From NCBI GenBank assembly GCA_963788655.1, contig CAWBHS010000057.1, positions 224,001-288,000 of the forward strand: DNA of 64,000 nucleotides. The letters are read 5' to 3'. The stretch comes from an uncultured Verrucomicrobiae bacterium. Lineage in GTDB: Bacteria > Verrucomicrobiota > Verrucomicrobiia > Limisphaerales > JAFGQR01. The notes below the pieces were generated by a model, which ran no database searches, had not been told where the DNA came from, and worked only from the letters and a program-made list of their open reading frames with translations. Numbering within the stretch: position 1 is the stretch's first letter; each line of letters opens with the position of its first letter. A program made the position numbers and the translations under genes. Positions 1 to 34,712 of this stretch are shown in pieces.

Positions 1-673
1 AATTCACCGAGCCGCTGCCGGAGCCGGTTGCCCCCGCGGTAATGGTGATCCAGGAATTCGTGTTGATCGTCTCCCAATCGCAACCATTGTCGGTGGTCAC
101 CGCCACGGTCCCCAGTCCGCCACCGGCGTTGAACGAGTCACTGTTCGCACCCAATGAATAAGCGCAACTCCCCTCAATGGTCACCGTGCCGTCCACGTAC
201 GTGGAACTCAATGGCGTGGCAAACTCGTCCGACACTTCGCGACCAATCGGCTGGTCTCCAAGAGTCACCGGGGTGGCGACCGTGCTCGTACCGGGAGCGG
301 CGGCGAAGCACACGTCAACAACCACCTGGGAGCCTGCGGGAAAGGTGGAGCTGAAATAAAGCGCCACGGCGCATCCAACACGACCCGACTCAGCCTGATT
401 GGCGTTGAGCACCAAGGGGAACGCGCTGCTGGCGCCGCTGCCCAAACTCGCAGAGACGAAGGTCAGCAGGGCGGGATCGTAATTCAGACTGAAGCCCAAG
501 GCATTTTCATCGCCCTGGGCCTCCAGAAAAACTGACAGACACTGCGTCTGTCCACGGGAAACCGTCATGTCCCCAACCCGCAAACTTCGTTCAGCGCCGA
601 AACTGGCTGACACAAGCGTCAGCATTAACAGCGAAACGACCGCCAAATACCTTGTGTTGACTGATTCTCTCAT
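1..673 (-). CDS. Secreted cohesin-like + BACON-repeat protein (partial; continues beyond left edge; absent from ORF track)
   Basis: Manual translation from ATG at 673: MRESVNTRYLAVVSLLMLTLVSASFGA (signal peptide), then cohesin-like LEAQGDENALGFSLNYDPALLTF...DQPIGREVSDEFA..., then BACON-like CAYSLGANS...GCDWETINTNSWITITAGATGSGSGSV. Open frame to position 1. Confidence 0.85.
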   Translation of the reverse strand, partial: MRESVNTRYLAVVSLLMLTLVSASFGAERSLRVGDMTVSRGQTQCLSVFLEAQGDENALGFSLNYDPALLTFVSASLGSGASSAFPLVLNANQAESGRVGCAVALYFSSTFPAGSQVVVDVCFAAAPGTSTVATPVTLGDQPIGREVSDEFATPLSSTYVDGTVTIEGSCAYSLGANSDSFNAGGGLGTVAVTTDNGCDWETINTNSWITITAGATGSGSGSVN

Positions 674-863
674 ATTTCGATCCCATTTATTGCCAATCCT
701 TTAAATAGTCGGCTGCCAGCCGGTTTTCTGAAATCCGTAAGACCCCTAAGCCGGCCATCGGGGAAATACCTAAAAGGCTCTCCGGGCAATTGCGGTACGG
801 CGCGGCTCGCCCCGCTTAACGCGGTAATCCGGGATTTGTTCCTCATTGGAGACTGCGTCCGGG

Positions 864-3800
864 CTATTGTTGCTTCACGGCCCGGTAAAATCGTTGCGCA
901 AAATTGGTGGTGCCAAGGTCGATGAAATCGATGGTCCCCAGCGTATTGGTCAGGCGAGACAGCGTATCCCAATGCACCAGATTGGTTGAACCTTGCACTT
1001 CCCAAATCTCGCCGGGCACGCCGGACAGCGTCAGCTTCATTTGTCCGGTGGCGGCGGGCATGGTGATCGGCCCGAGGGTGACGCCCACAGTGGAAAACTG
1101 CTGGGTGACCGTGAACAATTGATTGGCCACGACCAACTGGCCCGTACGCTCCTCAAGACCGGTATTGGCGCTCACTTCATAGCTCACGCTGCCGTCGCCG
1201 GAACCACTCTCGCCCGCGGAGATCGTGATCCAGTCATTGGGGTTTTCGACGGTCCAATTGCACCCGTCGCCGGCCGTCACCGTAATCAAGCCGCTTTCCG
1301 AGCCCGGACCATGAGTAGCCTCGGTCGGCGCAATTACCCAGGTGCAATCCGATCCCGACTGGGTCACGGTAAAGAGCGCAAACGGATCGCCGGGAATGGT
1401 CAACATACCGGTCCGTTCATTGCGCGTCGGATTGGGCGCCACGGTGTAGGTCACGGTGCCGAAGTTGGTGCCGTCCGGACTGGAAGTGAGGGTGATCCAA
1501 CTGTTGGTGCTGACCACCGTCCAACTGCAACTGGTCAGCGAGGAGATGGCCACTTGGGCAGTTTCCTGGGCCGGGCCGTGGATGCGGTTGGTCGGCGAGA
1601 ACTCGAAGAGGCAAAACGCGCCGCGTTGGTTCAAGGTGAAAACCTGATCGGCAACAAACACGAGCCCGGTCCGTTCGAGAGCGCTGATATTGGGCGGAAT
1701 CGTATAACTGAATTCGCCGTTGCCGCTGCCGGTGGTGCTCGAACTGATCGTGATCCAGGCGTTCGTGTTGGATACCGTCCAATTGCAGCCGTCGTTGGCC
1801 GTCACGCTCACGGTGCCGCTGCTGGCGCCGCTGCCGTGCAACCGGTCCTCCGGGGATAATTTGTAACTACAGGTTTGGCCCTGTTGCCCCAGGTTGAAGG
1901 GTTGGCCGCCAATAACCACCACGCCGGAACGGTCATTGAACGTGTCATTGGCTGCCACGGAGTAACTGACCTCGCCGGGGCCGGTACCGGTCAGGCCCGA
2001 GGTGATCGTGATCCAACTGTTCGTATTCTCGACGAGCCATTCACATCCGTTCAGCGTGGTCACGCTCACCGTCCCGGCCGCAGCGCCGTAACCGTGCGTG
2101 CGACTGCCCGGGGTGATGGAATAGGTACACGGTGAACCAATTTGCGTCACGCGGAACGCTTCGCTGCCAATGGTCACCACGCCGGTGCGGTTACTCAGGC
2201 CCGCATTGGCGTCCACGGAGTATTGCACTTGCGTGCTGCCGGTGCCGGTGGGGCTGGAGCTGATCGTAATCCAATCGTTGGTGTTGACCACGGTCCACGT
2301 GCAGCCGTCGAGCGTTGTCAGGTCCACCGTGTCCGCGGCGGCGCCGTAACCATGGGTGCGGTCAATGGGAGACAACTTATAGGTGCAGGGCCGTCCCACT
2401 TGACTCACGCTGAACACCTGATTGGCGATCACGATCACGCCTGCCCGGCCTTCGATGCCCGGATTATCTTGCACGGCATACTCCACGTCGCCACTGCCGG
2501 TCATGCTCGGGGCGGAGTTGATCGTGATCCAAGTGTTGGTGTTCACTACGTCCCACGTGCAACCGTCGAGCGTCACCACACTCACTTGGTCTGTAGCCGC
2601 GCCGTAACCGTGCGTGCGATTGATCGGCGTCAATGCATACGTGCAGGGCACGCCCGCCTGGATCAACGTAAAGGGTGTGCCGCCAACGGTCACTACACCG
2701 GTCCGGTCATTCAGGCCGGAATTATCCGCCACGTTGTAGTTCACCGTAGTACTGCCCTGCCCATTCGAGCTCGTCGTAATGGTGATCCAACTATTGGTGT
2801 TAACGATCGTCCAACTGCACCCGCTGAGGGTGGTGAGGCCGATCGTGCCAGCGCTGGCGCCGTAACCGTGGTTGCGACTGGTCGGTGACAAGGCGTATTC
2901 ACAGGGGGCGCCGGTTTGCGTCAGCACAACCGTTTCGCCGCCAATCACGAGCGTCCCGGTCCGGGCGTTGGGACCTTCGTTGGCGGCCACCGTGTAGTTG
3001 ATGGTAGCACTGCCGCTGCCTTCGGGATTGGAGGCAATGGTAATCCAAGTGTTGGTGTTCACCACACTCCAGACGCATCCATCGAGCGCAACCAAGTTCA
3101 CACTGTCGGCCGCCGCGCCGTAACCGTGCGTGCGGGTCGTCGGCGTCAATGCATACGTGCAGGGCACGCCCGCCTGGATCAACGTAAAGGGTGTGCCGCC
3201 AATGGTCACCACGCCGGTCCGGTCATTCAGACCGGGATTGGCCACCACGGTGTAGTTCACCGTGGTACTGCCCTGACCGTTGGGACTCGTCGTGATGCTG
3301 ATCCAGCTATTGGTGTTGACGATCGTCCAAGTGCATCCGCTGAGGGTGGTGAGGCCGATCATGCCGGCGCTGGCGCCGTAACCGTGGTTGCGACTGGTTG
3401 GCGACAAAGCGTATTCACACAGGGCGCCGGTTTGCGTCAGGACGAGCGTTTCACCCCCAATCACGAGCGTCCCGGTCCGGGCGTCGGGACCTTCGTTGGC
3501 GGCCACCGTGTAGTTGATAATCGCGCTGCCGCTGCCCTCGGGGTTCGAGGTGATGGTAATCCAAGTGTTGGTGTTCACCACGCTCCAGGCGCAACCATCG
3601 AGCGTCGCCAAGCTCACACTGTCAACCGCCGCTCCGTAACCGTGCGTGCGGGTCGTCGGCGTCAATGCATAGGTGCAGGGCACGCCCGCCTGGGTCAATG
3701 TGAACGGCGCGCCGCCAATGGTCACCACGCCGATCCGGTCGTTCAAGCCGGGATTGGCCACCACGGTGTAGTTCACCGTGGTACTGCCCTGCCCGTTGGG

Positions 3801-4550
3801 ACTCGTCGTGATGCTGATCCAGCTATTGGTGTTGACGATCGTCCAACTGCACCCGCTGAGGGTATTGAGGCCAATCGTACCAGCGCTGGCGCCGTAGCCG
3901 TGATTACGACTGGTCGGAGTCAAGGTATAGGTACACGGGGCGCCGGTTTGGATCAGGACGAATGTTTCACCGCCAATCACCACCGTCCCACTCCGGTCGT
4001 TGGGGCCTGGATTGGCGGCCACCGTGTAGTTGACTTCAGTGCTGCCGGTGCCTTCGAGGCTCGTCGTGATGGTAATCCAGGCATTGGTGTTCTCCACGGT
4101 CCAGGGGCAGCCGATGACGGAGGTCAAGCTGACGGCGCCGCCAGTCGCGCCATATCCATGGGTCCGCCCGGTCGGCGACAACTTGTAGGTGCAAGGGCGC
4201 CCGCGTTGCGTCACGTTGAACGGTTGGTCAGCAATGACGAGCACGCCCGTCCGCTCGGCGGAACTTGGATTGGCGTCCACACTGTAGAGGATGTCGCTGG
4301 TGCCGGCGCCACTGGCGCTGGACAGAATGTCGATCCAGGTGTTCGTGTTCACCACCGTCCAGGCACAGCCGCTGGTGGTCACCACGGAAACCCGATCGGT
4401 GGTGGCGCCGTAACCGTGCGTGCGCTCTATCGGGGAGAGCGCATACGTACAAGGCTCGCTCGCTTGGGCTGGGCTTTGACCGAGGACAGCCAAAGTTATC
4501 GCCAAGGGCATAAGGGCCCTCCACACCTTCTGGTTGAAGAAATTTCTCAT
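864..4550 (-). CDS. Secreted protein of 13 tandem BACON-like (Cys-containing Ig-fold) repeats with C-terminal RFYR-type tail
   Basis: ORF 864..4592; likely start MRNFFNQKVWRALMPLAITLAVLG at 4550. Counted 13 repeats of ~86 aa (CTYxLxPxxRxHGYG...GCxWxVVNTNxWIxI...RTGxxxIG...FxxxQ). Tail ends QRFYRAVKQQ. Confidence 0.85.
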   Translation of the reverse strand: MRNFFNQKVWRALMPLAITLAVLGQSPAQASEPCTYALSPIERTHGYGATTDRVSVVTTSGCAWTVVNTNTWIDILSSASGAGTSDILYSVDANPSSAERTGVLVIADQPFNVTQRGRPCTYKLSPTGRTHGYGATGGAVSLTSVIGCPWTVENTNAWITITTSLEGTGSTEVNYTVAANPGPNDRSGTVVIGGETFVLIQTGAPCTYTLTPTSRNHGYGASAGTIGLNTLSGCSWTIVNTNSWISITTSPNGQGSTTVNYTVVANPGLNDRIGVVTIGGAPFTLTQAGVPCTYALTPTTRTHGYGAAVDSVSLATLDGCAWSVVNTNTWITITSNPEGSGSAIINYTVAANEGPDARTGTLVIGGETLVLTQTGALCEYALSPTSRNHGYGASAGMIGLTTLSGCTWTIVNTNSWISITTSPNGQGSTTVNYTVVANPGLNDRTGVVTIGGTPFTLIQAGVPCTYALTPTTRTHGYGAAADSVNLVALDGCVWSVVNTNTWITIASNPEGSGSATINYTVAANEGPNARTGTLVIGGETVVLTQTGAPCEYALSPTSRNHGYGASAGTIGLTTLSGCSWTIVNTNSWITITTSSNGQGSTTVNYNVADNSGLNDRTGVVTVGGTPFTLIQAGVPCTYALTPINRTHGYGAATDQVSVVTLDGCTWDVVNTNTWITINSAPSMTGSGDVEYAVQDNPGIEGRAGVIVIANQVFSVSQVGRPCTYKLSPIDRTHGYGAAADTVDLTTLDGCTWTVVNTNDWITISSSPTGTGSTQVQYSVDANAGLSNRTGVVTIGSEAFRVTQIGSPCTYSITPGSRTHGYGAAAGTVSVTTLNGCEWLVENTNSWITITSGLTGTGPGEVSYSVAANDTFNDRSGVVVIGGQPFNLGQQGQTCSYKLSPEDRLHGSGASSGTVSVTANDGCNWTVSNTNAWITISSSTTGSGNGEFSYTIPPNISALERTGLVFVADQVFTLNQRGAFCLFEFSPTNRIHGPAQETAQVAISSLTSCSWTVVSTNSWITLTSSPDGTNFGTVTYTVAPNPTRNERTGMLTIPGDPFALFTVTQSGSDCTWVIAPTEATHGPGSESGLITVTAGDGCNWTVENPNDWITISAGESGSGDGSVSYEVSANTGLEERTGQLVVANQLFTVTQQFSTVGVTLGPITMPAATGQMKLTLSGVPGEIWEVQGSTNLVHWDTLSRLTNTLGTIDFIDLGTTNFAQRFYRAVKQQ
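2650..3941 (-). repeat. Near-identical 516-bp intragenic tandem repeat (2 BACON units per period, ~2.5 copies)
   Basis: Odd-numbered repeat starts at ~3941, ~3425 and ~2909 (516-bp spacing) with long stretches of nucleotide identity. Confidence 0.8.
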
Positions 4551-4616
4551 ACTTCTGCTCTCGTTTGCTTGTGGTTCGTTACACCATTTCATTCGTCACT
4601 GGATTCGGAAATTCGT

Positions 4617-4669
4617 AAATCCCCCCGGCGCGCCCTCCGCAGATTCGCGGCGCGCGGGGACGGGGATTT
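4617..4669. other. GC-rich intergenic stem-loop between CotH gene and BACON gene
   Basis: AAATCCCC...GGGGATTT outer arms and GCGCGCC/GGCGCGC inner arms. Confidence 0.5.
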
Positions 4670-4717
4670 GCTGAAACTGGAACATGATCGCGCATTGCCA
4701 TGATTGGTTCGCACTGG

Positions 4718-7700
4718 TTATTGGCTTACCGCCCGATAGAATCGCGGGTTCGCGTTGATGGCATCCGCGTCGATGTATTCCACGGTGCCGGTCGTATTGG
4801 TCACGGTGGTCAAGGGATCCCAGTGTTCGAGATCCGCCGAGCTTTGCAATTCCCACACGGCACCCGGCTCACCGAACAGGATCAGCTTCACGCCTCCCTC
4901 CGGAAGGGGCGCGACCTCTTGGAACATGACGCCGCTGGTGATGGTGACCGTCGCATTCTCGTAGGTCGCTTCCAGGATGTTGGCAAACGAGTCCGATACC
5001 TCGCGGCCAATGGGGAAATCACCCATGGTGACGGAAGTGGAAGCCGTCTCACTCACCTCCGCCGCCTGGAAACAAACCTCGGCAATCACGTGCGTCCCGG
5101 TTGTGAATGCGGTCCCAAACGGCAGCGCGATCAGCAAGCCCACCGCGCCGGAATCGGCGTGCGCCGTATTGACAATCACGGTGGCGTTGCTGGCGTCGCT
5201 GCCCTTGGTAGCCGACAGGAAGGTCAACAACTCCGGATCGAAGTTGAGGCTGAAGCTCAAGGCATTTTCATCGCCTTGGGCCTCCAGTAGAATTTGCAGG
5301 CAATTGGACTGGCCGCTGCCAATATTCATGTTGGCGACCGTGATCACGCGCTGTTGCTGGGGCGCAAAACCTTTGGTGGACGACGCGCCCGCGCCCGGAT
5401 CGAGCAACAGCGGCGCAAATCCCGGGGCGGAACCGCCCACGGGTACCGCCGGGTCCAATCCCGCGGCATAACGCCCGGCCTGCACCCAATCGGAAATGGT
5501 GATGCTGCCGTTACCGGAAGGTTTGGGCGCGCAGTCCACCCGGGAAAATTCGCACGGATCGGTGGTGGTATCGAGGCCCGCGGCAAAGCGCCCGACCTGC
5601 ACCCAGTCGGAAATGGAAATCGCTCCGTTGCCGTTGGGCCGCGGCGCAGCATCGGCCATCAGACCGCTGCACGAACTGCCGCCACTGACCACCACGGTGA
5701 AACTTTGGGTCGCGCTCAAGCTCGGCACCCCGCTGTCCGTGGCGGACACCAGCACCCCGTTGGTACTGGGGCCCTGACCCGAGCCAGGGGTCCAGGTGAA
5801 GACGCCCGCCGGGCTGACGCTGGCACCGGCGGGTCCCGAAACCAGGGAATACGTGAACGTTTGTGCCGGCAGATCGGTATCGATCACCGGGATCGTGAGA
5901 CTGACCAAGGTGCCGACACTGACCGACTGGTCCGCCATGGGATCAATGACCGGTGGATTGTTCACCTCGTTAACCGTCACGGTAAACGTCTGGGTGTCAT
6001 TCAATGCCGGTTCTCCGTTGTCGGTGACGGCGACGGTGATCGAGTAATCGACGCCGCCCTGGGATTCGATGGGAGTCCAGGTGAACCCACCCGTTGCCGG
6101 ATCAATGGCAGCCCCGTACGGCGCTCCCGCCATCAACGAAAAGGTCAACGGCTGGGCCGGCACGTCGCCGTCGGTGGCGAACACCGTAAAACTCAGTAAT
6201 TGGCCTTCATTCACGCTGCGGTCCAGAATCGGCCCCAGCGTCGGCGCATACACATTGCCAGTGACAATGTTGGAGGTGCCGGGCGTGGGCGTGGTCATGA
6301 ATTGGAAACCACCGGTAAGGTTGCCATCGTGGAAGCGCCCCTGGCTGACGTCGGCGATTTGGCTGCCGAAAATAACCGTATCCACATTCACGCCTTCAGG
6401 ACTGAACAGGCCGATTTCATCCCCGCTCTTCGAGATTTTGAAACTGGTGTGCAGGGCGTTTCCCATCATGTTGGTGCCGGAATTGTCATTGTCCGCCCAG
6501 CAGAGCAGGAAGCTGTTCGGCGCGAGGGTAACGCCCTCGGGAATGCGCCATTCCTTCTCATTGTTCAAGCTGTCGGTCAGATAGAACCCGGACAAATTGA
6601 GCGTGAGCGACCCGAAGTTGTAGAGTTCGAACCAGTCGTCATACCGCTGCGTGAGGGGATCCAGCAACGTGCGCGTGTTGCTGGCCATCCACTCGTTGAT
6701 CACCACCGGCACCGGCGCCGGATTGTTGGCCGCGCCGGGCGTCACGAAATAGAACAGTTGTTGGTCAAACAGTTGTCCGTCCGGGTAGGCGCCAAAGGAC
6801 AAGCCGGGGGACATGTTGGTGTAATTGAGGTAATCCACGATCAACTGCCCGCGGGAGAGCGCCACCGAGCCATTGACCGGATCGAGCCGGAAAGAGGTGT
6901 GCAACACCGACTCCGTGGAAAGCTCCGGCTGGCCATCGGCAAAGATGATGCGGAACTCGCCGGGATTGATCAAGGTGCCGGCGGGGAAGGCCCATTCATT
7001 CAGCGGGTCATAGGTCGCAGAAAGGAAGAAACCGTCGAGCGACAGGATGTTGGTGCTGCTGTTGTACAGTTCGATCCAAGGTTGGGGTGTGCCGGAATTG
7101 TCCACCAAACCGTCCGGATTGTCCGGCTGGACTTCATTGATCCAGACCAATGGATAAGCCGGCAGCGTACCGGTACCCCAATTGGCCTCGCCGGGCGTGG
7201 CGTACGCGGGACGTGCGTCGAGCTCGGACAGAAAGGAGCCCACCCCCAAACGCACAGTGAGCGTGTTGGCGGTGGAACCGGGATTCGAGCGGTACCAGAA
7301 ACTCAGGGTGTAAGTGTTGGCGGTGTTGATGGTGGTCACGTCCTGGTACAGGCAGCGCGACGTACTGCCTGACCGCGCAAAGACCAGGTGCAGGCTGCTG
7401 GCACCGGAATGGGCCAGGGCTGTGCTGACCGCGGAGCCCTCCGCACCGTTGGAGCCCAGCACGCCCCAATCACTGCCCAGCGGTAATTCGAACTCGCCGT
7501 TTCGCACCGCGTTGTCGCCGACCCCGGGCACCGACCCTGGCACCAGCGTCATGTCGTCGATATAAATATCCCCCGCGGCATCGAGGTAGAGGTAAATACG
7601 GGTGCCGGACGGTTTGCCGGTAAAGCTGAAGAAATGCCAGGCGGACCCGTCATCCCAGTTGCTCACCCGGGAGTTGTCCTGGGCGGCATCGATGAGTTGC

Positions 7701-10700
7701 AGTGATTTGCCTGCGCCGGGGGTAGCCGGACCGGCGGGCCAGGGCGGTTCGGCGCGGAACTTCACCTGGTCGATGACGATGTCCGTCTCATTGGTCGTCG
7801 GGGCGCGCTGGAGCAACGTCAGCCGTTCCCCGTCGGGATCGAGGTTGCCGTTGAATTCGCCGGCGATCCGCGGGCCAGTCCCATAGGCCGTTTGGAACGC
7901 GACGGTGTCCTTCACCACCATCAGGAACTCCTGCGGGCCAATAATGGTTCCGGGACCGAAATTAAAATCGACGCCCTTCAACCGAAAGTCGGCCAGGCCA
8001 AACGTGGTGTTGGTGGAGCGATTGTAAATCTCGACGTACTCAGCATTGGTGACGGCAGGATTATACATGATTTCGTTGATCACCAGGCTGTCTTCCAGCC
8101 GGCTGACCGGGCCGTCGAAATAGATGGTCATGGCGGTGGTGGCATCGCCCAGTGGATTGCCATCGGCGTCGTAGCCTTGCACGACGAGGTGGTTGGTCTG
8201 GCCGCTGAGCGGTACTTGCGTGGACCAGTTGGTGATGGTGGACCAGGTGATCGGATAAGCCACGCCGTTGATGGTGATCTCGCGCGCGGAAATCGAAGCC
8301 GTGCCCTCAAGGGTCACCAGGGTGCTGCTACTGGTATAATCAACCCCGCCGTGGGTGGTGATTGCAAAGTCCACGTCCGCCTGCTGGAGCAACCAGAAGA
8401 TGTAATCGCGCCGGGCGCCCAGGAAGTTTTTCACCGCGGTGGGTTCGGCCGCGTTGATGCCGCTAGCCAGGTAGGCGGCATTGCGGGCGTCGAGCACCGG
8501 GTGCAACCGGGAGGGATCGAGCGGGCCGTAGGCGGCATCCTCGAGGGCCTGCCAATAATAGCGCAGCACCAGGGGTTGGTTGAAGAGATTGGTGATCGGC
8601 GGATCGGAGAAATCAAAGAGCGAATCCGTGGGATTGCCGGAGAACGCGGCGTCGATGTCCCAGATGAAGAACCTCCAGGACATCGCCACCGGGCTTGTAC
8701 AGGAAAGCGTTCTGGCCGCCGGGTTTGGTGGCGTCACCTTTGATGCGGCGGCTGCCATACAGGTCGGTGTTATTGATGATGCGCTCCGCCGCAAATGATC
8801 GCGCCCATTCGAGGATATCCACATTAGGATAGACTTGCGCGGCATAGGCATCGCCCGTGGCGGTCGTATTCAAAATGTCCACCAGGCTAAAGAGGTTGGT
8901 GTAATTGTGGGCCGAATCCTTCACCGCGCGCTTGGGAAACGTTTGACGGTAGCGGGCCAGTTTCTTGACCCCACCCGTCGTCGTAAAGGGCAGGAGGCTG
9001 GGAAGCGTATTGCCATGGTGGGTGGTGTCGTCGCTGTACTCATACCAGTACGCCACCTTGTACAATCGCCCGCGGGAGCTGTCGGGATACCATTGGGCAT
9101 CAAAATCCTTGTTCGGCCGCTGGGTATCTTCGTAAATGATGCCCCGGCGCAAACCGTTAATAAACATATTGACCGCGCGTCGATGGAGCGCCGGAATGCC
9201 AAGTTGATCGACCAGCCAGAAACCAATTTGTTCATCCAATCCCGTGGCGTCTTTGCCCCACAGACCGGGTTGCTGCACCCGGATGGAATCCGCATCCATC
9301 AGTCGGTCATCCGACGGCAGGAGAATCTGGTAATCGCAGTTCGTGCCGATAGGCGAATCATACAGTTTGGTGTGGGCCGGACTGCCGGCGTAGTGGCTGC
9401 CCGCGTTGTAAATGGTGCGAAAGTTGCCATAGACAAACGTGCCGGCAAAAATATCGTTGCTGAATTTCTCCTGCGCCAGCCAGTTGTTCAGGCTCGCCTG
9501 GGTCAGCCAGAAACGGTAGGTGCCGTAGGTGGCCAGGGGTTGTTCGCTGCCAAAGTTCACCAGGCATTCGCGGGTCGGGGCGTCGTTCGGAAATCGCGTC
9601 GTCGCCGCCGGCGAATACTGGTCGGTAGCTTGCACGTAAAACGCCACCAAGGTGCCCTTCGGCTGGCCGGGAATGGTGGCCGCATACACCCCGTCCTTGG
9701 GAATCGCGTCGCCACCGGTGCCATTGTCCACCATCGTCAACGTGGCCGGAGCACCAAAGGGATCGATGCGATAGATCACTTGGACGGAGGCCAGCCCGTC
9801 GGGATCGTACACGCGGGCCCGGATGACGACCGGCTCGCCGTCCGCCGGCAGCACCGGAGTAGGAGTGATGTCGTCAATGGCCGGGCCGGTGTTGGCCGCC
9901 CAGCGGCTGTTGCGTTCACCGGGCGTTCCGAGATTGGGCGGCACGTCGAGCACGCCGGCAACTTCCAACATGTTACCGCGAAGTCGAAAGAGGATTTCCG
10001 GCTTGCCATGGAGCCATTTGACGCGAGCGGTGATGGATCCGACGACGTTGGAGGGATAGCTCTGGGTCAGATGGGTATAAATCCGATTGGCACCGGTGTC
10101 GCCACCATCGGTCGCCACGACGTGCAGCGAGCGGGTGCTGTTGTAGCCGGTGGTTTCCAGGTAGCAATGTTTATGGTTGCCCTGGAAGACCCAATAGTCC
10201 AAGCCGGTTTGAAAGGTCGAGTTGGTGACCATGTTCAGACCGCCGGCCGTGTCGGTAACGCGCACATCCACGTTGTCCACCAGGCACTCACCCCGATCCA
10301 GCATCGTAATTTGCAGCGAGTCCCAATCGCTCGGGGAATCGTCGCCGTTGTCGAGCCGGCCACTGGTGGTCACCAGGGTCCACGGGCTCTTGGCCGAATC
10401 GTCACTGTCGGCCCAGTTGCTCGCCAGGCGATTGTCGCTGCGGGGATCGATGAGTTCGAGGCTGCTGCCTTCGCCATCATTCCATTTGCCCCAACGGCCC
10501 CCGGTGCCATAACTCACCTCGTCCACGACGATGTAAATGAGGTTGGTTTTCACCACGCCGTTCAGGTTGGTGCTGACGACGGTGTCGGGCATCGACACCG
10601 CGATCCGTTCCCCGGAATTCTTGAGGCTGCCACCATAGTCGCCCACCGTATTGTTGGCGTTCAGAACGGGATATTTCGACCGCAACTGCAGCGCGTTCTT

Positions 10701-13700: not shown

Positions 13701-14643
13701 AAAAGACCGGGGCAATGGTGTCCGGGAGCACGGTCAGAATGGCTTCGCTCGAGGTTTGCACGCCGAAGATGTTGCTGACCACGCAACGGAACCGTGCGCC
13801 GTTGTCATTGGTGGTCACCGCCGAAAGCGTGTAGGTGGCGCCGGTGATCCCGGAGAGCACCCCACCGTCGCGCTGCCACTGGTAACCCACCGCATCCAGG
13901 TTGGCTACTTCCACGTGGAAACTGGCCGGCGCATTCTCCAGCACGGTGGTCGAGGAGGGCTGCCGCAACAGCACGGGTTGGGTCGAGGGCGCGGCACCAA
14001 AAGGGAGCAGCCGCGTGGCTGGCATCGGCAGTTCCATGGTGCCATCGGGAAGCTTCCAGCCGACGTTGAGGAAATCGTATCCCAAGCCCGCGCTTTGCAG
14101 CGCTTCGATGTAATAGCGTTTGCCGGCTTCGAGATAGATGCTGGGTGATTGCTGGCTGGGATGATTGAAATAGGTACCGTAGGTCACGGTATTGGTCACC
14201 ATGCCAATGAGTTGTTTGTTGGCCGGACTCTCGTCCGTGCTCAAGAGCAGTTGGCCGGTGTCATCAGCGGCAATCCAAAACACGTACGTGCCCGACACCG
14301 GTGGCACCACCAACGCGCGCAACCGCTGCCCGTAATAGTCACCGTATTGAAGCGGCGTCGTGAATTCATTGGTCAGCACCTCGGTGAACGTGGGGAAATC
14401 GGGGAAGCTGGAATCGTTCGTCAACCCCAGCAGCGAACTACTGATGAGCCCGGTATAGACCTGGCGGTAAACGCCGTACGATTGGCCCCAAGCCGGTGTC
14501 CCCGCTCCCAGCAGGAGCAGCAGCGCGGCGAGCAGGCCGCGCCATCCGCTGAATATCCTGGCGACCGGGCGGTGGCGCCGCGCTTCGCTTCCCATCGCTC
14601 GGGGAGTTTGTGGTCTCGCCAAGCGTCTCATGTGCAATTGCAT
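4718..14643 (-). CDS. Giant secreted CotH-kinase family protein (~3,300 aa): PA14 x2, Ig/Big, ConA-like, lamin-tail domains, CBM-like, CotH, cadherin-like Ig x2, dockerin-like, cohesin-like, RFYR tail; split by 2 frameshifts (~13130, ~8680)
   Basis: Joins ORFs 12973..14685, 8613..13127 and 4718..8851. SD AGAAAGG precedes ATG 14643. PA14 motifs (YGQRLRA..PPxSGxYxFWIAADD), repeated LTD starts (V(I/F)(N/S)EIMYHP, INEWMASN), CotH-like ERIINNTD...SWRFFIWDIDAAF across the second frameshift. Confidence 0.8.
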
Positions 14644-14710
14644 AAATGACCTTTCTAAAGGTTGATCCCTCCCTGGACCGACCACGTTCTTGTCTTAACG
14701 AATGATCGGA

Positions 14711-17700: not shown

Positions 17701-20700
17701 TCACACTGCCGGCGGCGTTGCTGACGATCACGGAGTATGTGCCGGCCAACGCCAACTGCGCGCTGCTCAACAGCAGCGTGGCGTTGGTGGCGCCGGTCAC
17801 GGTGCCGCCGTCCATCAGGTTGGTCCCGTTGTGCCGCCATTGATACGCCAAGGGGGGCGTGCCGGACGCCACCACCGTGAACGTGGCGGGCAGTTCCTCG
17901 TCCACGGTGGCGCTGGCGGGTTGCTGCGCAATCGTCGGAACCAAGGGCAAAAACTGGACCTGATCCACCCAACCCCGGTCCTGGCCGGCGGTCACGCTGC
18001 TGTTCTTGTAATAGCGCCATTCCAATTCGTGGCTGCCGGCGGTGAGGGCCAAGATCTGCTGCTGCCAATCCACTTCACCGGAAATCGTCACGGTCGAGGA
18101 GCCGTCCAGGTAAAACCGCAAGCGGTCGTTGCTGGGTTCCGAGGAAACCTTCCACCACCAACTCAGCGTGCCGGGCCCGGTGACGGTCGTGGTCAAATAA
18201 CTGCTTTGACCGTCCTGAACGGTGCCGCTCCAGGCCGCATCAATCCCGTCATGGGTTTGGATCGGCTGCCCCTGCCACAGGGCATCACCGGTGGTGGTCC
18301 AGATCCAATTGGTGGTGTCCAGCGCCTCCGCCAATGGCAGCACCTCATAGACGTTCAACAGGGCGTTGGAACTGACGACCGAGCTTTCCGTATTGCTCAC
18401 TTCGACCGAGTAATTGCCGGCCTGGGCCATTTGCGCGTTGGTCAACACCAGGCTCGCCGTGGTAGCGCCCGTGATGCCCGCGCCGTCCACCAAATTAGTG
18501 CCATTAAATCGCCATTGGTAATTGAGCCCGATGCCGCTGGCGCCCACGCTGAAGGTCGCCGTTTCGCCCGTGCCCACGGTCTGGTCTTGCGGCTGGGTGT
18601 TGATGTTGGCGTCCGTATTGACACTCAACAACGCCTCGGGGCTGATGGCGGTGCCCGACGTGTTCCAGACCACCACGGAATAGATTCCCGCCTGGGCCGG
18701 CTGCACGTTGGCCAACCGTAGCGTAGCGGTAGTGGTGCCGCTCACGTCGCCGCCATTGACCAAGTCAATCCCGTTGAACTGCCACTGGTAGGACAACGGC
18801 TGCGTGCCACCGGCGCCCACTCCGAACGTAGCAGTGCTGCCGACGCCCACGGTTTGACTGAAGGGCGGGCTGATGATGATCGGGCCGAGGGAACCTTCGG
18901 TGAATTGCACTTGATCGACCCAGCCCCGGTCCTGCCCGAGAGTGGTGCTGCCGTTCTTGGAATAGCGCCATTCCAAATCATGATTGCCCGAACCCAATTC
19001 CACCATTTGCCACTGCCAATCGACTTCGCCGGAAATCGTCAACGAAGTGGAGCCATCCACGTAAAGCCGCAACCGGTCGTTGCTGGGTTCGGACGAAACC
19101 TTCCACCAAAAGCTGACCGTGCCGGGGCCGGCGACGGTGGTGAACATGGACGAGCTCTGCCCATCGGCGATGATGCCACTGCGGCCGCCATCCACGCCGT
19201 CGTGCATGACATTGGTTTCGCCCACCCAGGGCAACGAGCCGCCCGTAGTCCACGTCCAAGTGGGCGTGTCCAGAGCATCCGCCAGCGGCAGGCCGCGAAT
19301 CACCGTCAGAACCGCGTTGGAACTGAGCACCCGGGCGGCGGCGTTGGTCACGACCAACCGGTAAATGCCGGCCTGATCAAGGCGGACGTTGGTCAGCTTA
19401 AGCGTATTCTTGGTGGCGCCGCTAATGTCGAGCCCATCGACCAGATTAATGTTGTTGAGCTGCCAGTGGTAGTCCAAGGGGGCGGTGCCCGTGGCGGCGG
19501 CGGTGAACGTCACGGACGCGCCTTCATCGACCGTCAGGCTCAGGGGTTGCTGAGCGTGTACACGGGCGGAAAGATGGGCGCGTATTGTATCTGGTCCACC
19601 CAGGCCTGGTCTTCACCCTGCGTGACGCTCCCATTCTTCATGTAGCGCCAGCGCAACGACTGCCAGCCGGGCGGCACATCGAAGGTCATTTGGACCCAGT
19701 TGGTGTTGATGCCCGAGGTGCTGTCCAGGTCCACGCCCCCGACATAGAACCGCATCCGGTCCAGCAAGTTTTCCGAGGAAATTTTCCACCAGAACGTCAC
19801 GCGGCCCGGTCCGTTGACGTAAGTTTCCATCCAGCTTTCCTGTTCATCGATGATCGTACCGCTCTCCATGCACGTGCCGCCGGCGTGCGCGTAGTTGGTT
19901 GGCCACTTGCCAATAGGCGTCGCCGCCGGTGATCCAATGGCCATTCCAAAGCTGCCCAGTGGTTTCCAGGGCGTCAGAGATCGGCTGGCCGGGAAACAAG
20001 GTGAGCGTCACATTGGTGCTGATGTCGCGGCCGCCGGGATTTTCCACGATCACCGAATAGTCGCCAGCATTCACAGGTTGGACATTCGAGACAATCATCG
20101 TGGAATTGGTGGAGAAAACTATCGTGCCATTATCGAAGAGCAAATTGCCATTGAAGCGCCAACGGTAATCAAACGGACGCGTCCCAATGGCGCTCACCTT
20201 GAACGTCGCCGAGGCACCCAGTTCCGCCAGGACCGGCATCGGCGGAGTGTCGATCACGGGTGCCGCCGGACCAAAGCTCACCTGGTCGAGCCAGGCCCGG
20301 TCCTGGCCGGCGCTGCCACTGGCGTCTTTCATGTACTGCCAACGCAATACCTGACTGACGTTGGTGACCTCGAAGGTGCGCCACTGCCAGTCCACCTCAC
20401 CGGAGATGTTCAGCTTCTCGACGCCATCCACCTGGAAACTCAACCGGTCGCGGTTGGCCTCCGACGAAACCTTCCACCAAAAACTGACGGCGCCCGGCCC
20501 CACCACGGTTTCCACATAATTAGACTGGCCATTGGGAATGGGGCCGCTTTCCGCGGCATCCAGCCAATCGTAATTGACAGCGCTTTGACCCACCCAGGGC
20601 GAATAGCCGCCCAGCGACCAACCCCAAATTGGCGTATCCACGGCCTCGGCCACGGAGATCACCGGAATAATCGTCAGCAGGGCATTCGGTACTGATGGCC

Positions 20701-23700
20701 AGACTGTAGGGATTGCGCACCACGACCGAATACGAGCCTTCGTCGGCGGCCTGTACATTGGCCAGAGTCAGCGTGGGAGTGGTCGCCCCGCTGACATTGA
20801 CGCTGTCGGCCAGGTTCACTCCGTTCACGCGCCATTGGTAACTCAACGGCGCCGAACCCACGGCGGCTGAATTGAAGGTAACCGTGGCGCCGGGGCCAAT
20901 GTTCTTGTTGACCGGCTGAACCGTAAGCACCGGCGGGGTGGGGCCGGACGAAGGAATGTACTGCACCTGGTCCACCCAGCCGCGATCCTGCCCGTTGGAT
21001 CCGCTAACGTCTTTGGCATAAACCCAGCGTAACACTTGGTTGCCCGCCGGCAGTTCAAAGGTGAGCCATTGCCAATCAACTTCCCCCGAGATCGCCGCCA
21101 AACTGGCGTCATTGACCGTGAACTGCAACACATCCCGATTGGTTTCCGAAGAAACCTTCCACCAGAACCGGATGGTGCCCGGCCCGGTGAGCGCCACCTC
21201 AAGACTGGTGATCTGACCATTCCCGATGGCACCGCTGCGGGCGGCGTCGATGCCATCGTGTGACAAGTTGGTCTGGGCCACCCAGGGCGTGGTCAGACTG
21301 GTGAGCCAATTCAAGTAGGTGGCGTTGACCGCTTCCGCCAAGGTCAACGCCGCGGCGACGGAGAGATTGGCCGGGGTACTGATGGCGGCGCCGCACCGCG
21401 TTGCTCACGACTACCGTGTAGGCTCCCGCGTGGGCGGAGCGCACGTTCGAGATGATCAGATGAGGGGTGGTCGCGCCGCTGATACTGCCACCGTCCACCA
21501 GTTGTTCCCCGTTGAACCACCACTGATAACTTAGCGGCGGCGTGCCCGAAGCGGCCACGGTGAAGGACACCGTGGCGCCTTCGCTCACGCTTTGACCGAG
21601 CGGACTGCTGGTAATTTGCGGCGGGGTGAACACCGCCAGATGCGCATCGGCACTGGCCACACTGCCCACGGCGTTCGCGACCATCACCGAATAGGCGCCG
21701 GCCTGTTCGGCCTGCGCGTTGCCCAGCGTCAGCGTCGGTGTGGTGGCGCCACCAACACTACCGCCGTCATTCAGGTTCATCCCGTTGAATCGCCATTGGT
21801 ACGTCAACGGCGCCGTGCCGCTGGCCTCGACCGAAAAGACCACGTTGCTGCCCGCCTGCACATTCAAATTCAAAGGCTCAGTGACAATGTCCGGCGGCGT
21901 ACTCACGGTCAGCAATCCGTAAACCTTTTCATGGGTCACCTTGGTTTGCGCGATCCAGGACGCGTCACCGCCCATGCTCAATGTCAAATACGGTGCGTCC
22001 ACCGCGTTGGGCAAGGTCAATACAGTCAACACGGCTTGAGCGCTGGTCGTCATACCGCTCGCGTTGCTGACCACCACCGAGTAATGGCCGGCGTCAACCG
22101 CCTGCGCATCGTTTAACATCAAGGTGGCCGTCGTGGCGCCGTTGATCGAACCGCCATCGGCCAGCGGCATTCCCGCGCGCTGCCATTGGTAGCTCAACGG
22201 CGCCGTGCCGGCGGCTTCCACGGTGAAGCTGACTGCCGCGCCTTCGCCGACACGTTGGTTGGCGGGCTGCGTCGTAATCAACGGAGCCACCGTCACTGCC
22301 GGAGTATATTGAACCTGGTCCACCCAGGCCGCATCCCGACCGCCGGTGTTGGCGTCGTCTTTTGAATAACGCCACTTGAGCAATTGGATGCCGGCCGGCA
22401 CGGCAAAGGTCTGCTGCCGCCAATCCATTTCGCCGGAGATGCGCGCCTGCTCGATGCTGCCCACATAGAACCGCAATTGATCCTTGTCCTGCTCCGAAGA
22501 AACCTTCCACCAAAAGCTCACAGTGCCGGGGCCTTCGACCCACGTTTCCAAACGCGTGTTCTGACCGTTGGTGATGACCCCGCTGCGCGCCGCATCCGCC
22601 GCGTCGTGCGCAAATTCAGCTTGCGGAATCCAGGCGGCGTCGCCGGCCACGTCCATCGTCAGAGCGGGGGCATCCACCGCTTCGGCCAAGGTCAGGGTCG
22701 TCAGCAGCGCGTTGGGGCTGGTAACGCTGCCCACCGCGTTGGTGACTACCACCGTGTAGCGCCCGGCCTGGGCCGTGGTCACATTGGTCAACGTGAGGGT
22801 GGCGGTGTTGGCGCCGCTGATCTGTTCGCCATCGAAGAGGTTCGTGCCGTTAAGTTGCCATTGGTAATTCAAGGGGGACGTTCCGCTGGCCTCGACGTTG
22901 TAAGTAACGGTCGCCCCCGCGGGCACGCTTTGGTTTAATGGCGCACGGGTGATGATGGGCACGGTCGGACCGCCGTCGGGGAGATATTCCACCTGATCCA
23001 CCCACCCGGCGTCCTGCCCCCCGGTGCCGGTGTCGTCCTTCGAATAACGCCACTTGAGCAACTGGAGGCCGGCCGGCACCGGATACGATTGCCATTGCCA
23101 ATCGGTTTCCCCGCTAATGCGAGCCATTTCGTCGTTGCCCACGTAGAAGCGCAATTGGTCGTTCTCCGGTTCCGAGGAAACCTTCCACCAGAAGCTGACT
23201 GTGCCGGACCTTCGACCCAGGTTTCCAGCCGCGTGTTCTGGCCATCGGTGATCAAACCACTGCGGGCCGAGTCGGGCCGGGCAACCGCGCCTTCCACGTC
23301 TTCGCTGCTGGCGGAGCCGGCGTCGTTGCTCACGCGCACCGAATAGATGCCCGCTTGCGCGGACTGCACGCCGGTGATCGTCAACGCGCTGCTCGTGGCG
23401 CCACTGATGCGGCCGCCATTGACCAGATTGGTACCGTCGTATTGCCACTGGTACTGAAGCGGGGCCTGGCCCAGGGCGCCAACGGTGAAGGTGACCGTGT
23501 CGCCCGCAACCACGCTGAAGCTGTCCGGTTGTTTGGTAATCACCGGAGCCGTGATCAACGACAGAGAGGCATTGGGACTGATCGCGGTACCCACCGCGTT
23601 GGTGACCACCACCGAGTAAGCCCCCGCCTCGGCCTCCTGCACGTTGCTCAACGTCAGGATGTCACTGGTGGCGCCGCTGAGGTTGCCGCCATCGACCAGG

Positions 23701-26700
23701 TTGGTGCCGTGGAATTGCCATTGGTAACTTAGCGGCGTGGAACCCGCGGCGCCCACCCGGAACGTGGCGGTCGATCCGACGACCACGCGCTGGTTGGCCG
23801 GCGGATTGGCAATCATGGGCGCCGTGGTCGCGTCGGTGGGCAGATAAAACACCTGATCCACCCAGGCGCGGTCCTGGCCGGCGGACTGGCTGCCATTCTT
23901 GACATACCGCCATTCCAACGTCTGGCTGCCCGAGGGCACGTCGAACAGTTGCCATTCCCAATCGACTTCACCGGAAATGCGGAGTTGCTCCGAGCCGCCC
24001 AGATAGAACCGCAATTGATCGTTGCTCGGTTCGGAAGAAACCTTCCACCAGAAACCCACCCGGCCCGGGCCGGTGACGGTGGTGCGAATCGCGTTGTTCT
24101 GGCCGTCGGTGATGGCTCCGCTTTGCGCGGCGTCCATGCCATCGTGTGCCACCGTTGGCTGTCCCACCCACACTGGAGTTCCGGTGGTGGTCCAGGTCAA
24201 GTTCGTGGTGTCAAGTGCTTGATCCAACGGCACCACCGGGGTCACCACCAGCACGGCGCCGGAACTGGCGAGGCCGCCGCCGAGACCATCCACGACTACC
24301 GTGTAGGTTCCGGCTTGTGCGGCTGGCACACTGGTCAGTCGCAGCGTGGCGGTTTTCGCCCCGCTCACGTTGCCGCCATCGGTCAGAGCGGCCCCATTCA
24401 ACTGCCATTGATAGGTCAATGGCGGCGTGCCCGTGGCGGCCACACTGAAGGTGACGGTACTGCCTTCGTTCACACTCTGGCTCGCCGGTTGGCTGGTAAT
24501 GGCCGGCGCCACCGCGGCAAATTGCACTTGATCCACCCAGCCCCGGTCTTGCCCGCCATCGGTGCTGCCGTTCTTGTAATACCGCCACTGCAAATCATGG
24601 CTGCCGGAATTCAGGTTGTAGGTCACGAGCTGCCAATCAACTTCTCCGGAAATCGTCAAGATCGAGGAGCCATCCACGTAGAATCGCAGCCGGTCGTTGC
24701 TGGGTTCCGAAGAAACTTTCCACCAAAAACTCAGCGTGCCCGGCCCGCTGATCGTGGCCTCGAGATAGGTGCTCTGGCCGCCAGTAACGGCCCCGCTCCG
24801 GGCAGCGTCCACGCCGTCATGCGCGACCGCCGCTTGCCCGGTCCACGAGGCGGAACCGGTGGTGGTCCAATTGATGTTCGCCGTGTCCAGCGCCTGGGCC
24901 AACGGCAAGACCGGAGAAACAGTCAACAGCGCGTTCTGGCTGCTGACGCTACCCATCGCATTGCTCACCGTGACCGAGTAAACCCCGCCCTGCCCCAACT
25001 GCACATTGGACAGCCGCAGGGTCGTGGTCTGCGAGCCACTCACCGAGCCGCCGTCCGCCAGGTCGGCCCCGTTGAACTGCCACCGGTAACCGAACGGCGG
25101 GGTGCCTGAGGCCGCCACACTGAAACTGACCGTCGCGCCGGCATCCACGCTCTGGCTCGCGGGTTCCTGGGTAATCGTCGGCGCCCACGGCTCGAATTGG
25201 ACACGGTCCACCCAACCGTGGTCCTGGCCGTAGGCCAGACTGCTGTTTTTGGTGTAGCGCCATTCCAACGTCTGATTGCCGGAGCCGACATCAAACGAAC
25301 GCCATTCCCAATTGACTTCGCCGGAAATACGCACCAGTTCCGAGCCGTCCGCGTAAAACCGCAAGGTGTCATTGTCCGGCTCGGAAGAAACCTTCCACCA
25401 AAAACTCACCGTGCCCGGGCCCACAACGGTGGTTTGCAACCTGGAATCTTGGCCATCGGCCACGGCGCCGCTCCCGGCAGCATCAACAAAATCGTGGGTG
25501 ACGTTGGTCTGGCAGGTCCACGCGGCGCTGCCGCTGGTAGTCCAGGCGGATTGCGGCGCGTCCACGGCATCCCACAAGGCGCATTCGCCGATCACCGTCA
25601 CCGTGGCATCCCAGTATTGGCCGGCAAGCGGTTGGGCAATCAGATCCAGCAATTCGCGGCCCACCGGTTGGTCGCACAGCACCAGGGGCGTTGGCACCGG
25701 CCCGCTGGCTTGCAACCCCAGGAAACATACTTCGACCACCGGCTGCATCCCGGCGGGAATGACCCGGCCTGCCGGCATCGCCAGCATGAAACCCACCTGA
25801 CCCGGCACCGCCGGATTGTTGCTCACACTCAGGGATGCACCCGGCGCGCCGGCACCGGGTTGCGCCGACGCAAAAGCAAGCAAAGCGGGATCAAAGCACA
25901 CACTGAAACGCAGAACATTTTCGTTGCCGTGGGCCTCCAATGTCACCGGCACACAAACCGTCTCGCCGCTGGGGATCACGGTATCTGGCACTTGCACCAA
26001 GTGGAGACCGTTGTCTTGGGAAACCAGGTAGGTCTGGCCGGCAATCTCCAAGGCACCGCTGCGCGCGGCGTTGGTATTGGCGTCCACAGTATAAACTACG
26101 CTGCCGTTGCTGAGGCCGGTCGCGCCGGAAAGGATGTTGATCCACGGGTTCGTGTTGATCACGCTCCATTGACAAGCCGGCCCGGCCGTTACCTGGAATT
26201 CGCCGGCCTCCCAGCTTTCACCGTGAATCCAACCGGTCGGAGACAGAGTGTAGGTACACGGGATTCCTGCCTGGGTCACCGTGAACGGTTGGCCAGCAAT
26301 GGTCAACTCTGCGCTACGGGACGTCACAGTCGGATTGGCCGCCACCACGTAACTCACCGTGCCGGGGCCGGGGCCGGTGGCGCCGGCGAGGATGGTGATC
26401 CAACTGCTCGGATTGACGACACTCCAGTCGCAGCCGCCGATGGTGGTCACCGCCACTTCACCGGTTTCCTGCATGTAACCGTGAACACGATTGGTCGGTG
26501 CCAGGGCGTAAGCGCAGGGCGATTGGGTCAGGGTAAACAGCTCGCCGCCAATGTCCAGCAAGCCAGTTCGCGCCGTGGCGCTGGCGTTGGGGGCCACCTG
26601 GAACGTCACGGTCCCGTTGCCGGTGCCGGTGGCTGCCGAGGTCAGGGTGATCCACGCGTTGGTATTGAGGATGGTCCAATCGCACTTGGTGTTGGCCAGC

Positions 26701-31103: not shown

Positions 31104-31142
31104 AGTACTTCCATTCAAATTCATCGGACGCACACAGCCGTC

Positions 31143-31168
31143 CGGGAGGTCGTCCAATTGACCTCCCG
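31143..31168. other. Intergenic hairpin (perfect 9-bp stem) between algG-like gene and giant lyase gene
   Basis: CGGGAGGTC-N8-GACCTCCCG. Confidence 0.6.
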
Positions 31169-31236
31169 AACACACTGCTTCATAGGGAAAAATTCCACGG
31201 CGAAACTTCATATAGGTTTTCAGGTCAGGGATCCGG

Positions 31237-33139: not shown

Positions 33140-33186
33140 AGGATTACTGCTGATCCGGCACCGTTTGTCTCGTTCCTGAAACCGTC

Positions 33187-34560: not shown

Positions 34561-34712
34561 AATGTTTCTTTCCATTACCTTTCGTTCGTTAGTGTTCATC
34601 TATTTCCCCGTCTATGTATAATTAACCGGTTGGGATTACCTACCATGTTGCGGGGACAGCCACCATGGGAACAACTACTTCGGCCCATCACTGTATTTCT
34701 ACGATCACCCCC

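Follow-up and report, generated by a model that had tools for sequence, protein, structure and literature searches.

Cohesins and dockerins are well characterized in the type I pairs of clostridial cellulosomes (PDB 2vn5, 6kgc, 2ccl, and 1ohz), which are the closest described relatives of the system analyzed here: one dockerin and three cohesins (coh1 to coh3) carried by three giant proteins (the left-edge, CotH, and lyase giants) that are encoded in a 64,000-nucleotide stretch of DNA from an uncultured Verrucomicrobiae bacterium (hereafter, the window; G000:C57:224001-288000). Both folds and the duplicated loop-helix structure of the dockerin are alike in the two systems, and so is the placement of specificity at loop positions 10 and 11 (PMC8063739; this and most other papers cited below were available in part, and the comparisons apply to those parts). 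In contrast to the clostridial pairs, the dockerin loops of the window family carry an insertion and escape the Pfam model PF00404, dockerin and cohesins stand in one chain in a fixed order, and the two dockerin repeats track different cohesins. According to published descriptions, a type I dockerin engages a single cohesin at any time, via either of two near-identical faces, and a review of these domains found definitive evidence of selection for such a dual binding mode to be lacking.

Other described systems share particular features with this one. The type II X-dockerins of Clostridium thermocellum ScaA and CipB likewise combine one dockerin with two cohesin specificities in opposite orientations, but their partners are separate cell-surface proteins, their fused neighbor is an X module, and simultaneous binding is not reported in the available part of the source (PMC5141474); in the window family, a cohesin is the fused neighbor, its face co-varies with repeat 1, and the folds resemble those of type I. 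Ruminococcus bromii Amy4 likewise has a cohesin and a dockerin that recognize each other in one secreted enzyme, but it is a single amylase from a Firmicute (PMC4611034), whereas the arrangement described here is a fixed cassette, usually with two cohesins per dockerin, that precedes the C-terminal tail on many unrelated proteins from several phyla. The Cag_2037 and Cag_2038 proteins of Chlorobium chlorochromatii are likewise neighboring large proteins with immunoglobulin-like (Ig) repeats in a Gram-negative organism, with a link to alginate modification, an N-terminal cohesin on one, a C-terminal dockerin on the other, and a pairing predicted by modeling (bioRxiv 10.64898/2026.03.19.712371). 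They differ in that the cohesin is described as type II and resides on a type I-secreted RTX protein, with the lyase on the cohesin-bearing chain, and no dockerin-cohesin cassette is described in the available part of that preprint. Modules outside cellulose degradation are also known from anaerobic methanotrophic (ANME) archaea (PMC9012536) and Cloacimonadota (PMC8542988), and some ANME proteins combine one dockerin with several cohesins (PMC9012536); these modules were found by standard domain models, and the available parts of both papers describe no repeat-specific assignment of partners. The binding of two truncated dockerins by one cohesin has been reported as well (PMC12270676). The cassette is not described in the available parts of PMC11557425 and bioRxiv 2023.11.21.568195, and no description of this cassette or of partners specific to one repeat was found in the literature searched, whose coverage was limited, with most subscription journals outside it. 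Judging from its sequences, the window system would work like a type I cohesin-dockerin pair, the new elements being the fixed cassette and the repeat-specific partners, whose binding is predicted.

Domain identity and the conserved cassette

The domains in question, all encoded on the minus strand, are as follows.

170-592, minus strand: coh1, a free cohesin at the N terminus of the left-edge giant, immediately behind a likely signal peptide
4934-5350, minus strand: coh2, the cassette (downstream) cohesin of the CotH giant, with a modeled type I fold
5351-5446, minus strand: linker between the dockerin and coh2, 32 residues, Pro/Gly/Ala-rich, modeled with low confidence (disordered)
5447-5665, minus strand: dockerin of the CotH giant, 73 residues, of a family missed by PF00404
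25587-26003, minus strand: coh3, a free internal cohesin of the lyase giant, with an altered face

The original prediction had assigned three paralogous cohesins and a single dockerin to three co-encoded proteins. All three cohesins and the dockerin are found on the minus strand near the positions that it gave, and both dockerin repeats that it quoted are present as written, but the assignment to three proteins needs reading through frameshifts, and the 3 cohesins and 1 dockerin of the window belong to a genome total of 9 and 3 members of this subfamily, respectively. The pairwise identity of the cohesins is 39-54% (BLASTP E 2.7e-32 or better). The Pfam scan that had been proposed as a check gave a divided answer: Cohesin (PF00963) is the best family for coh1, coh2, and coh3 (E 0.018, 3.4e-6, and 0.003), but only coh2 (27.7 bits) exceeds the gathering score of 24.1 bits, coh1 (15.7) and coh3 (18.2) staying below it, and PF00404 does not match the dockerin. 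A family profile built from 101 cohesin sequences finds the type I cohesins 4ums (E 1.9e-7) and 1g1k (E 1e-6) in the PDB. The model of coh2 superposes on 6kgc_A (Z 18.9, root mean square deviation [rmsd] 1.9 Å over 135 residues) and 2vn5_A (Z 18.7), which supports a type I cohesin fold; coh2 was the one modeled, and its identity to coh1 and coh3 suggests the same fold for these two.

The dockerin contains two Asp...Asn/Asp...Ser/Thr..Asp loops, each with an insertion, and three helices (at 18-28, 37-43, and 57-67 in the model), with Ile-Ser at the recognition positions of both repeats. Its model matches C. thermocellum 2ccl_B (Z 9.2, rmsd 1.4 Å, 62/62 residues), and the copy encoded at G000:C88 repeats the fold match (Z 8.8). 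By sequence, it is elusive: only 2 of 82 family members reach E<=0.1 with PF00404 (best, 0.043), a profile search of the PDB found no dockerin, and NCBIfam yields no match to the dockerin, to the cassette, or to two of the tails that follow it. A protein atlas links it, at 0.93-0.94, to clusters in which 13-16% of members carry PF00404, with low shared-feature counts that make this a lead only. The canonical dockerin calcium loop has 12 residues, with Asp or Asn at positions 1, 3, and 5 and Asp at position 12. The window family departs from this 12-residue form in having a longer Pro-containing segment in place of position 3, while the first and last Asp are near invariant (359-361 of 361) and position 5 is Asn or Asp in 333 and 354 of 361 members for the two loops. 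Because PF00404 misses the domain, its identity rests on the fold match, and since neither the Pfam model nor the canonical loop fits, we file it as a divergent dockerin family. Ligand-type residues are conserved, and folding and binding may depend on calcium. That the cohesin and dockerin folds, as named in the original prediction, are correct we regard as almost certain, the models matching 6kgc_A and 2ccl_B, respectively.

The dockerin family is large (1,459 clusters at E<=1e-10 and 1,740 at 1e-3). Its named records come mostly from Acidobacteriota (Blastocatellia) and Verrucomicrobiota, with some from Planctomycetota and KSB1 and some titled Heliomicrobium; in the order searched, 19 of 61 genomes carry it, source genome included. 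The initial homologue search used a query made of dockerin, cohesin, and tail, and its biased linkage of 133/133 was replaced by dockerin-only searches. In such searches of DNA (own-genome loci excluded), 92 of 100 distinct dockerins are followed, after 20-72 residues, by an in-frame downstream cohesin; the other eight include four at a contig or locus end, one apparently frameshifted, and three that end the protein. Among the best 150 representatives, a downstream cohesin follows 133 of 161 dockerins; of the 28 without one, 27 are no more than 100 residues away from the end of their sequence, a mixture of fragments, likely frameshifts, and dockerins that are truly terminal or in tandem. An upstream cohesin is directly fused in 61/100 and 102/161 cases, respectively. 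The cassette usually precedes a C-terminal tail, which is of a 70-residue type, TIGR03437, or a domain resembling that of the type IX secretion system (T9SS) or FlgD. Unlike most relatives, the CotH giant of the window has a dockerin with no fused upstream cohesin. The dockerin had been said to directly precede a cohesin, which is right as to the order, but the 32-residue linker lies between them.

The source genome also encodes a full cohesin-dockerin-cohesin protein (G000:C88:187176-190754) and a PL6-dockerin-cohesin protein (G000:C103:29792-32164). Dockerins of the PF00404 type occupy a similar slot before the same tail at G000:C103:7965-8108 and G000:C38:218013-220319; one of these follows a divergent cohesin and, as judged by eye, is itself followed by another cohesin-like stretch, and the other precedes a cohesin on an alkaline phosphatase-like protein. 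The small proteins P0121 and P0125-P0127 carry two or three tandem family dockerins and no cohesin; charged or polar residues predominate at their repeat-1 positions, the usual code being retained in repeat 2, and they are possible cross-linkers.

A cellulosome was considered and rejected: neither a multi-cohesin scaffoldin nor a set of glycoside hydrolases bearing dockerins was found in the window, and in the source genome (86% complete) no protein has more than three cohesins, which are dispersed, and there are 3 family dockerins and 5 PF00404 matches.

Repeat-specific co-variation and proposed dockerin binding

Repeat 1 of the dockerin tracks the upstream cohesin, and repeat 2 tracks the downstream cohesin, a division of labor that, like the fixed cassette, the original prediction did not include. 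Of the 361 distinct dockerins analyzed, 316 have a cohesin downstream, 237 have one upstream, and 225 have both; D denotes a dockerin position and Cup and Cdown denote positions of the upstream and downstream cohesins, all in profile numbering. Gaussian coupling in the 225 full cassettes ranks D19-Cup119 (z 14.8) and D18-Cup73 (z 11.0) as the top dockerin-upstream pairs and D59-Cdown119 (z 10.2, or 13.2 with all 316) as the top pair between dockerin and downstream cohesin. When the three domains were modeled jointly, the direct pairs scored 14.9 and 9.3 and the crossed pairs 5.5 and 4.2, an order that was kept in 20 of 20 subsamples. Stratification of each pair by the remaining two positions (n=176 once rare residues were removed, relatedness among cassettes not being corrected for) gave odds ratios of 23.3 for D19 and Cup (p 7e-16) and 9.3 for D59 and Cdown (p 2e-9), with crossed pairs at 1.7 and 1.4, not significant. 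The direct pairs are strongest within both the 70-residue-tail and the TIGR03437-length-tail groups; the third tail class (T9SS/FlgD-like, 20 cassettes) shows too little variation for the test.

Cassettes in which no upstream cohesin was detected (91, some of them maybe truncated) retain the relationship of repeat 2, D59 tracking Cdown119 (p 3e-8) and D19 not tracking it (p 0.4), and their repeat 1 is still conserved. Tree-based pairs give a similar result for 45 comparisons that lack the upstream cohesin (odds ratio of 10.5, p 0.001, for D59 versus 1.8, p 0.27), and among 112 tree-based pairs of full cassettes, D19-Cup119 ranks 5th of 4,840. The residue code reads as Thr/Ile versus Ser and Ala/Ser versus Val/Ala. 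Cohesin position 119 we take to be the counterpart of Ala125 in C. thermocellum. The latter is a contact of the Ser/Thr motif (PMC5772552), and cohesin position 73 aligns, with an assumed numbering offset of one, with a pocket leucine of the Clostridium cellulolyticum cohesin (PMC12484212). The coupled dockerin residues D18/19 and D58/59 are the two residues before the last Asp of each loop and probably equate to loop positions 10 and 11, the known determinants of dockerin specificity (PMC8063739).

The mechanism that we propose, with about equal weight for and against, is a two-site dockerin. Repeat 2 would bind coh2, 32 residues downstream in the same chain, a cognate pairing that is predicted with good confidence and would be formed in cis rather than by domain swapping. 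Repeat 1, which the fused upstream cohesin would fill in most relatives, is likely vacant in the CotH giant because the latter has no such cohesin, and it would capture a free N-terminal cohesin, e.g., coh1 of the left-edge giant; this capture in trans is a prediction that we lean toward. The CotH kinase giant would thereby be mounted, by a defined clip, at the tip of a BACON/Ig stalk of ~5,000 residues within an alginate-type matrix, and coh3 would serve as a stalk domain or as the partner of another dockerin class. A wider version, in which dockerins of this family bind two cohesins at once, as a calcium-locked sandwich, and the upstream cohesin has moved to another giant to yield a clip programmable via the residue code in Verrucomicrobiota and Acidobacteriota, is tentative.

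The co-variation fits equally well with strand exchange, in which the dockerin would bind in either of two orientations that exclude each other, with a single site in use, and coh2 would be a tethered cap that keeps it closed until displaced by a coh1-type cohesin bound in the repeat-1 orientation. Binding of one motif at a time is canonical, being the mode of C. thermocellum type I pairs, which engage a single Ser/Thr motif (PMC5772552), and type II dockerins with opposite orientations and different cohesin specificity provide a precedent (PMC5141474). However, the gap between the dockerin and its nearest upstream cohesin is near zero (median 0), which suggests a fixed geometry. In the AlphaFold model of the cohesin-dockerin-cohesin cassette from C88 (predicted local distance difference test [pLDDT] 93.8, predicted TM score [pTM] 0.83), moreover, the three domains appear to be placed together, because the pTM exceeds the 0.56 of residues that dockerin and one cohesin comprise, a rough yardstick, as loosely placed domains add some score. 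Foldseek and VIA searches with this model returned no chain with the same arrangement, a result that cannot show an interface. On balance, strand exchange seems unlikely.

Pairing in trans is also compatible with the co-variation, and the linker is flexible, as would suit the open assembly envisaged in the original prediction: the dockerin would bind coh2 of another copy by domain swapping, giving dimers or chains and, with two-cohesin cassettes, networks. There is a parallel in R. bromii Amy4, whose cohesin binds its own dockerin (PMC4611034) and whose full-length form aggregated when a dockerin deletion did not (bioRxiv 2025.03.31.646359), and the small tandem-dockerin proteins could act as cross-linkers. 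Yet the linker length is tight (quartiles 26-31 residues, never <20; n=316), as expected for reach in cis, and the AlphaFold model of dockerin, linker, and coh2 (89 sequences; pLDDT 91, pTM 0.84) places both domains, though a single chain cannot show swapping. We consider such a polymer improbable; what stands of the proposed self-association is the pairing of dockerin with coh2, which the co-variation and this model support.

Free cohesins as candidate partners

Free cohesins occur in 9 of the 19 dockerin-bearing genomes and, weakly, in 2 of the 42 genomes without a dockerin; three weak matches in dockerin-bearing genomes (G028:C355, G021:C187, and G021:C147) fall outside the examined set. 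When compared with 553 cassette cohesins at 17 conserved, presumed face positions, which were picked by conservation and strand pattern rather than from coordinates, coh1, coh2, and coh3 rank at the 81st, 60th, and 4th percentiles, respectively. The face of coh1 keeps 16 of the 17 consensus residues, whereas that of coh3 has Arg32 (0/553 cassette cohesins), Ser61, Met73, and Leu119 (3/553); the other conserved positions of coh3 are at the 21st percentile. Similarly low ranks (0-11th percentile) are seen for the coh3 counterparts in the lyase giants of G015, G016, and G000:C99. Docking onto coh1 is plausible because its conserved face is kept, and coh1 is the likely partner in trans, as far as its sequence can tell. 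We rejected coh3 as a likely partner of the dockerin on account of its low face score and the Arg at a position where no cassette cohesin has one. Of the contacts put forward for the kinase protein, that with the left-edge protein is thus plausible and that with the lyase giant unlikely.

Free cohesins at the N terminus differ from internal ones at position 119, where a cassette-type Ser, Val, or Ala is found in 10 of the 10 N-terminal cohesins examined and in 4 of 15 internal ones. The loss of this residue in the other 11, together with the confinement of cohesins to cassettes in 10 of the 19 dockerin-bearing genomes and a conservation of repeat 1 that could be structural, would suit a closed module only, i.e., a self-contained calcium-stiffened clamp or sacrificial bond by the tail, with free cohesins, coh1 included, as reused stalk copies and no docking between proteins. 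Against this stand the nearly complete consensus face of coh1 and the N-terminal free cohesins of four relatives (G015, G016, G018, and G021), 7 of 8 of which match the repeat-1 code of their own genome's dockerin. For cohesins that lie near a dockerin without adjoining it, agreement with the D19 code is seen in 15 of 16 scorable cases and with the D59 code in 8 of 15 (the cases are not independent, many being paralogous copies). We regard a closed module as doubtful.

Several results weigh against the two-site reading, besides the single-motif binding in C. thermocellum and the way the face positions were chosen. The co-variation fits cis or trans and simultaneous or alternate binding equally, and pTM reports confident placement of domains rather than which surfaces are in contact. 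In the Acidobacteria-type lineage, crossed pairs are also significant before stratification. In the tree-based full cassettes, D59-Cdown119 (rank 180 of 4,920) is not separated from D59-Cup119 (198 of 4,840), D58-Cdown73 is not significant (p 0.14), and the underpowered discordant-pair tests gave p values of 0.14 and 0.09. The code of the window is itself atypical: Ile-Ser in repeat 2 goes with Ala73/Val119 in 25 of 37 cassettes, while coh2 has Leu73/Ser119. Nor does this code single out coh1, since Ser at D19 accompanies Ser119, as in coh1, in 8 of 31 cassettes and Ala119, as in the N-terminal cohesin of C99, in 9 of 31, so that the latter would fit equally. The whole-face scores of 7 of the 10 N-terminal free cohesins are at the 4th to 25th percentile, and the co-occurrence of free cohesins with dockerins may merely reflect copying from the cassette. 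Two further analyses favor neither side: a direct complex prediction for coh1 and the dockerin, both supplied as alignments, gave no answer (score, 0.10; mark, 0.32; controls not folded), and a tree of 19 cohesins, none of whose branches was starred, settled no grouping.

The C99 locus (G000:C99:122171-135281) encodes a paralogous PL6 giant with an intact N-terminal cohesin face (55th percentile) and two altered internal cohesins; its N-terminal cohesin is a candidate trans partner for the window dockerin. The repeat-1 code of the C103 dockerin (Ile-Thr) fits coh1 (Ala73, Ser119) better than that of the window dockerin does. Internal free cohesins (25587-26003, C99, and loci L117-L120) share a recurrent altered face, often with Leu119, Arg or Ala at 32, and Gly123, which may represent a second specificity class rather than decay.

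Gene content of the locus and its significance

The source genome is 8.96 Mb long, and bases 1-38055 of the window form one minus-strand gene run that combines alginate-type genes with the giant proteins.

Start at 673, past the window edge to G000:C57:209493, minus strand: coh1-bearing left-edge giant, ~5,060 residues via one frameshift
864..4592, minus strand: BACON-repeat protein of 1,242 residues, lacking both cohesin and dockerin, with synteny in G015 and G016
4718..14685, minus strand: CotH giant, ~3,300 residues, in three open reading frame (ORF) pieces (12973-14685, 8613-13127, and 4718-8851); domain order PA14, Ig, lamin-tail domains, CotH kinase domain, Ig, dockerin, cohesin, tail
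4721..4930, minus strand: ~70-residue C-terminal tail of the CotH giant, common to the giants
14711..31211, minus strand: lyase giant, ~5,500 residues read via seven frame changes; PL6 alginate lyase domain (29928-30986), peptidase-like, PKD, BACON, coh3, Ig repeats, tail
31237..33139, minus strand: AlgG-like mannuronan epimerase (E 8e-18), two pieces with one frame change
33187..34599, minus strand: GDP-mannose 6-dehydrogenase, AlgD-like (1mfz, E 1e-110)
34713..35963, minus strand: HlyD-type membrane fusion protein (domain match)
35944..38055, minus strand: family 2 glycosyltransferase (GT2; domain match)

The PL6 domain matches the solved structure 7o84 (E 2e-98). The GT2 has no solved relative at E<=1e-5 and presumably plays an Alg8-like role, as its gene context suggests. 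The alginate-type set (29928-38055: GT2, HlyD, GDP-mannose dehydrogenase, AlgG-like epimerase, and PL6 giant) is syntenic in G016 and G015, the GDP-mannose dehydrogenase not being seen in the syntenic G015 locus. A limited literature search turned up nothing clearly on alginate synthesis in Verrucomicrobiota. The motif residues of the CotH domain, a putative kinase, are those of its unbroken orthologues. All three giants are likely to be exported or secreted.

The reading-frame trace shows seven frame changes in the lyase giant, two between the pieces of the CotH ORF, and one in the left-edge giant. The rpoB and sucA genes are also split by frame changes in the source assembly (G000:C45:51013-54792 and G000:C57:203876-206635), and its ORF calls are therefore unreliable. 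In G015 and G016, which represent two other families of the order, the gene order is the same, cohesins and dockerin are at equivalent places, and the orthologues of the three giants are unbroken single ORFs (5,053/5,315, 3,307/3,442, and 5,709/5,846 residues), those of the CotH giant having 3,307 and 3,442 residues. Because rpoB and sucA are split as well and these orthologues are single ORFs, the frameshifts of the giants are most likely assembly errors; we rejected the pseudogene reading. An extra gene for a protein of 1,500-1,700 residues lies between the lyase and CotH giants in the relatives (G015:C31:71976-76988 and G016:C241:52339-56913) and is absent from the window.

The ~70-residue tail ends all of the giants, including the ORFs at 864-4592 and 14711-19513, and named homologues with the same tail come from Pedosphaera, Limisphaerales, and Verrucomicrobiae. 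A tail profile built from six seeds has 184 matches in the genome, 163 of them within 12 residues of the stop, and the tails scanned have no Pfam or NCBIfam match. Because homologous cassettes have a TIGR03437 or T9SS tail in that slot, the 70-residue tail may be an unnamed sorting domain; a sorting or anchoring role is likely.

In this family, nature provides a dockerin whose two repeats each follow a partner of their own; the code is readable, and the domains are small enough for expression and titration. A 1:2 complex, if it exists, would amount to a novel geometry of binding and would supply a branching element to designer scaffolds. The cassette also hints at an unannotated means by which large surface proteins may be joined in Verrucomicrobiota and Acidobacteriota, in this case at an alginate-type locus.

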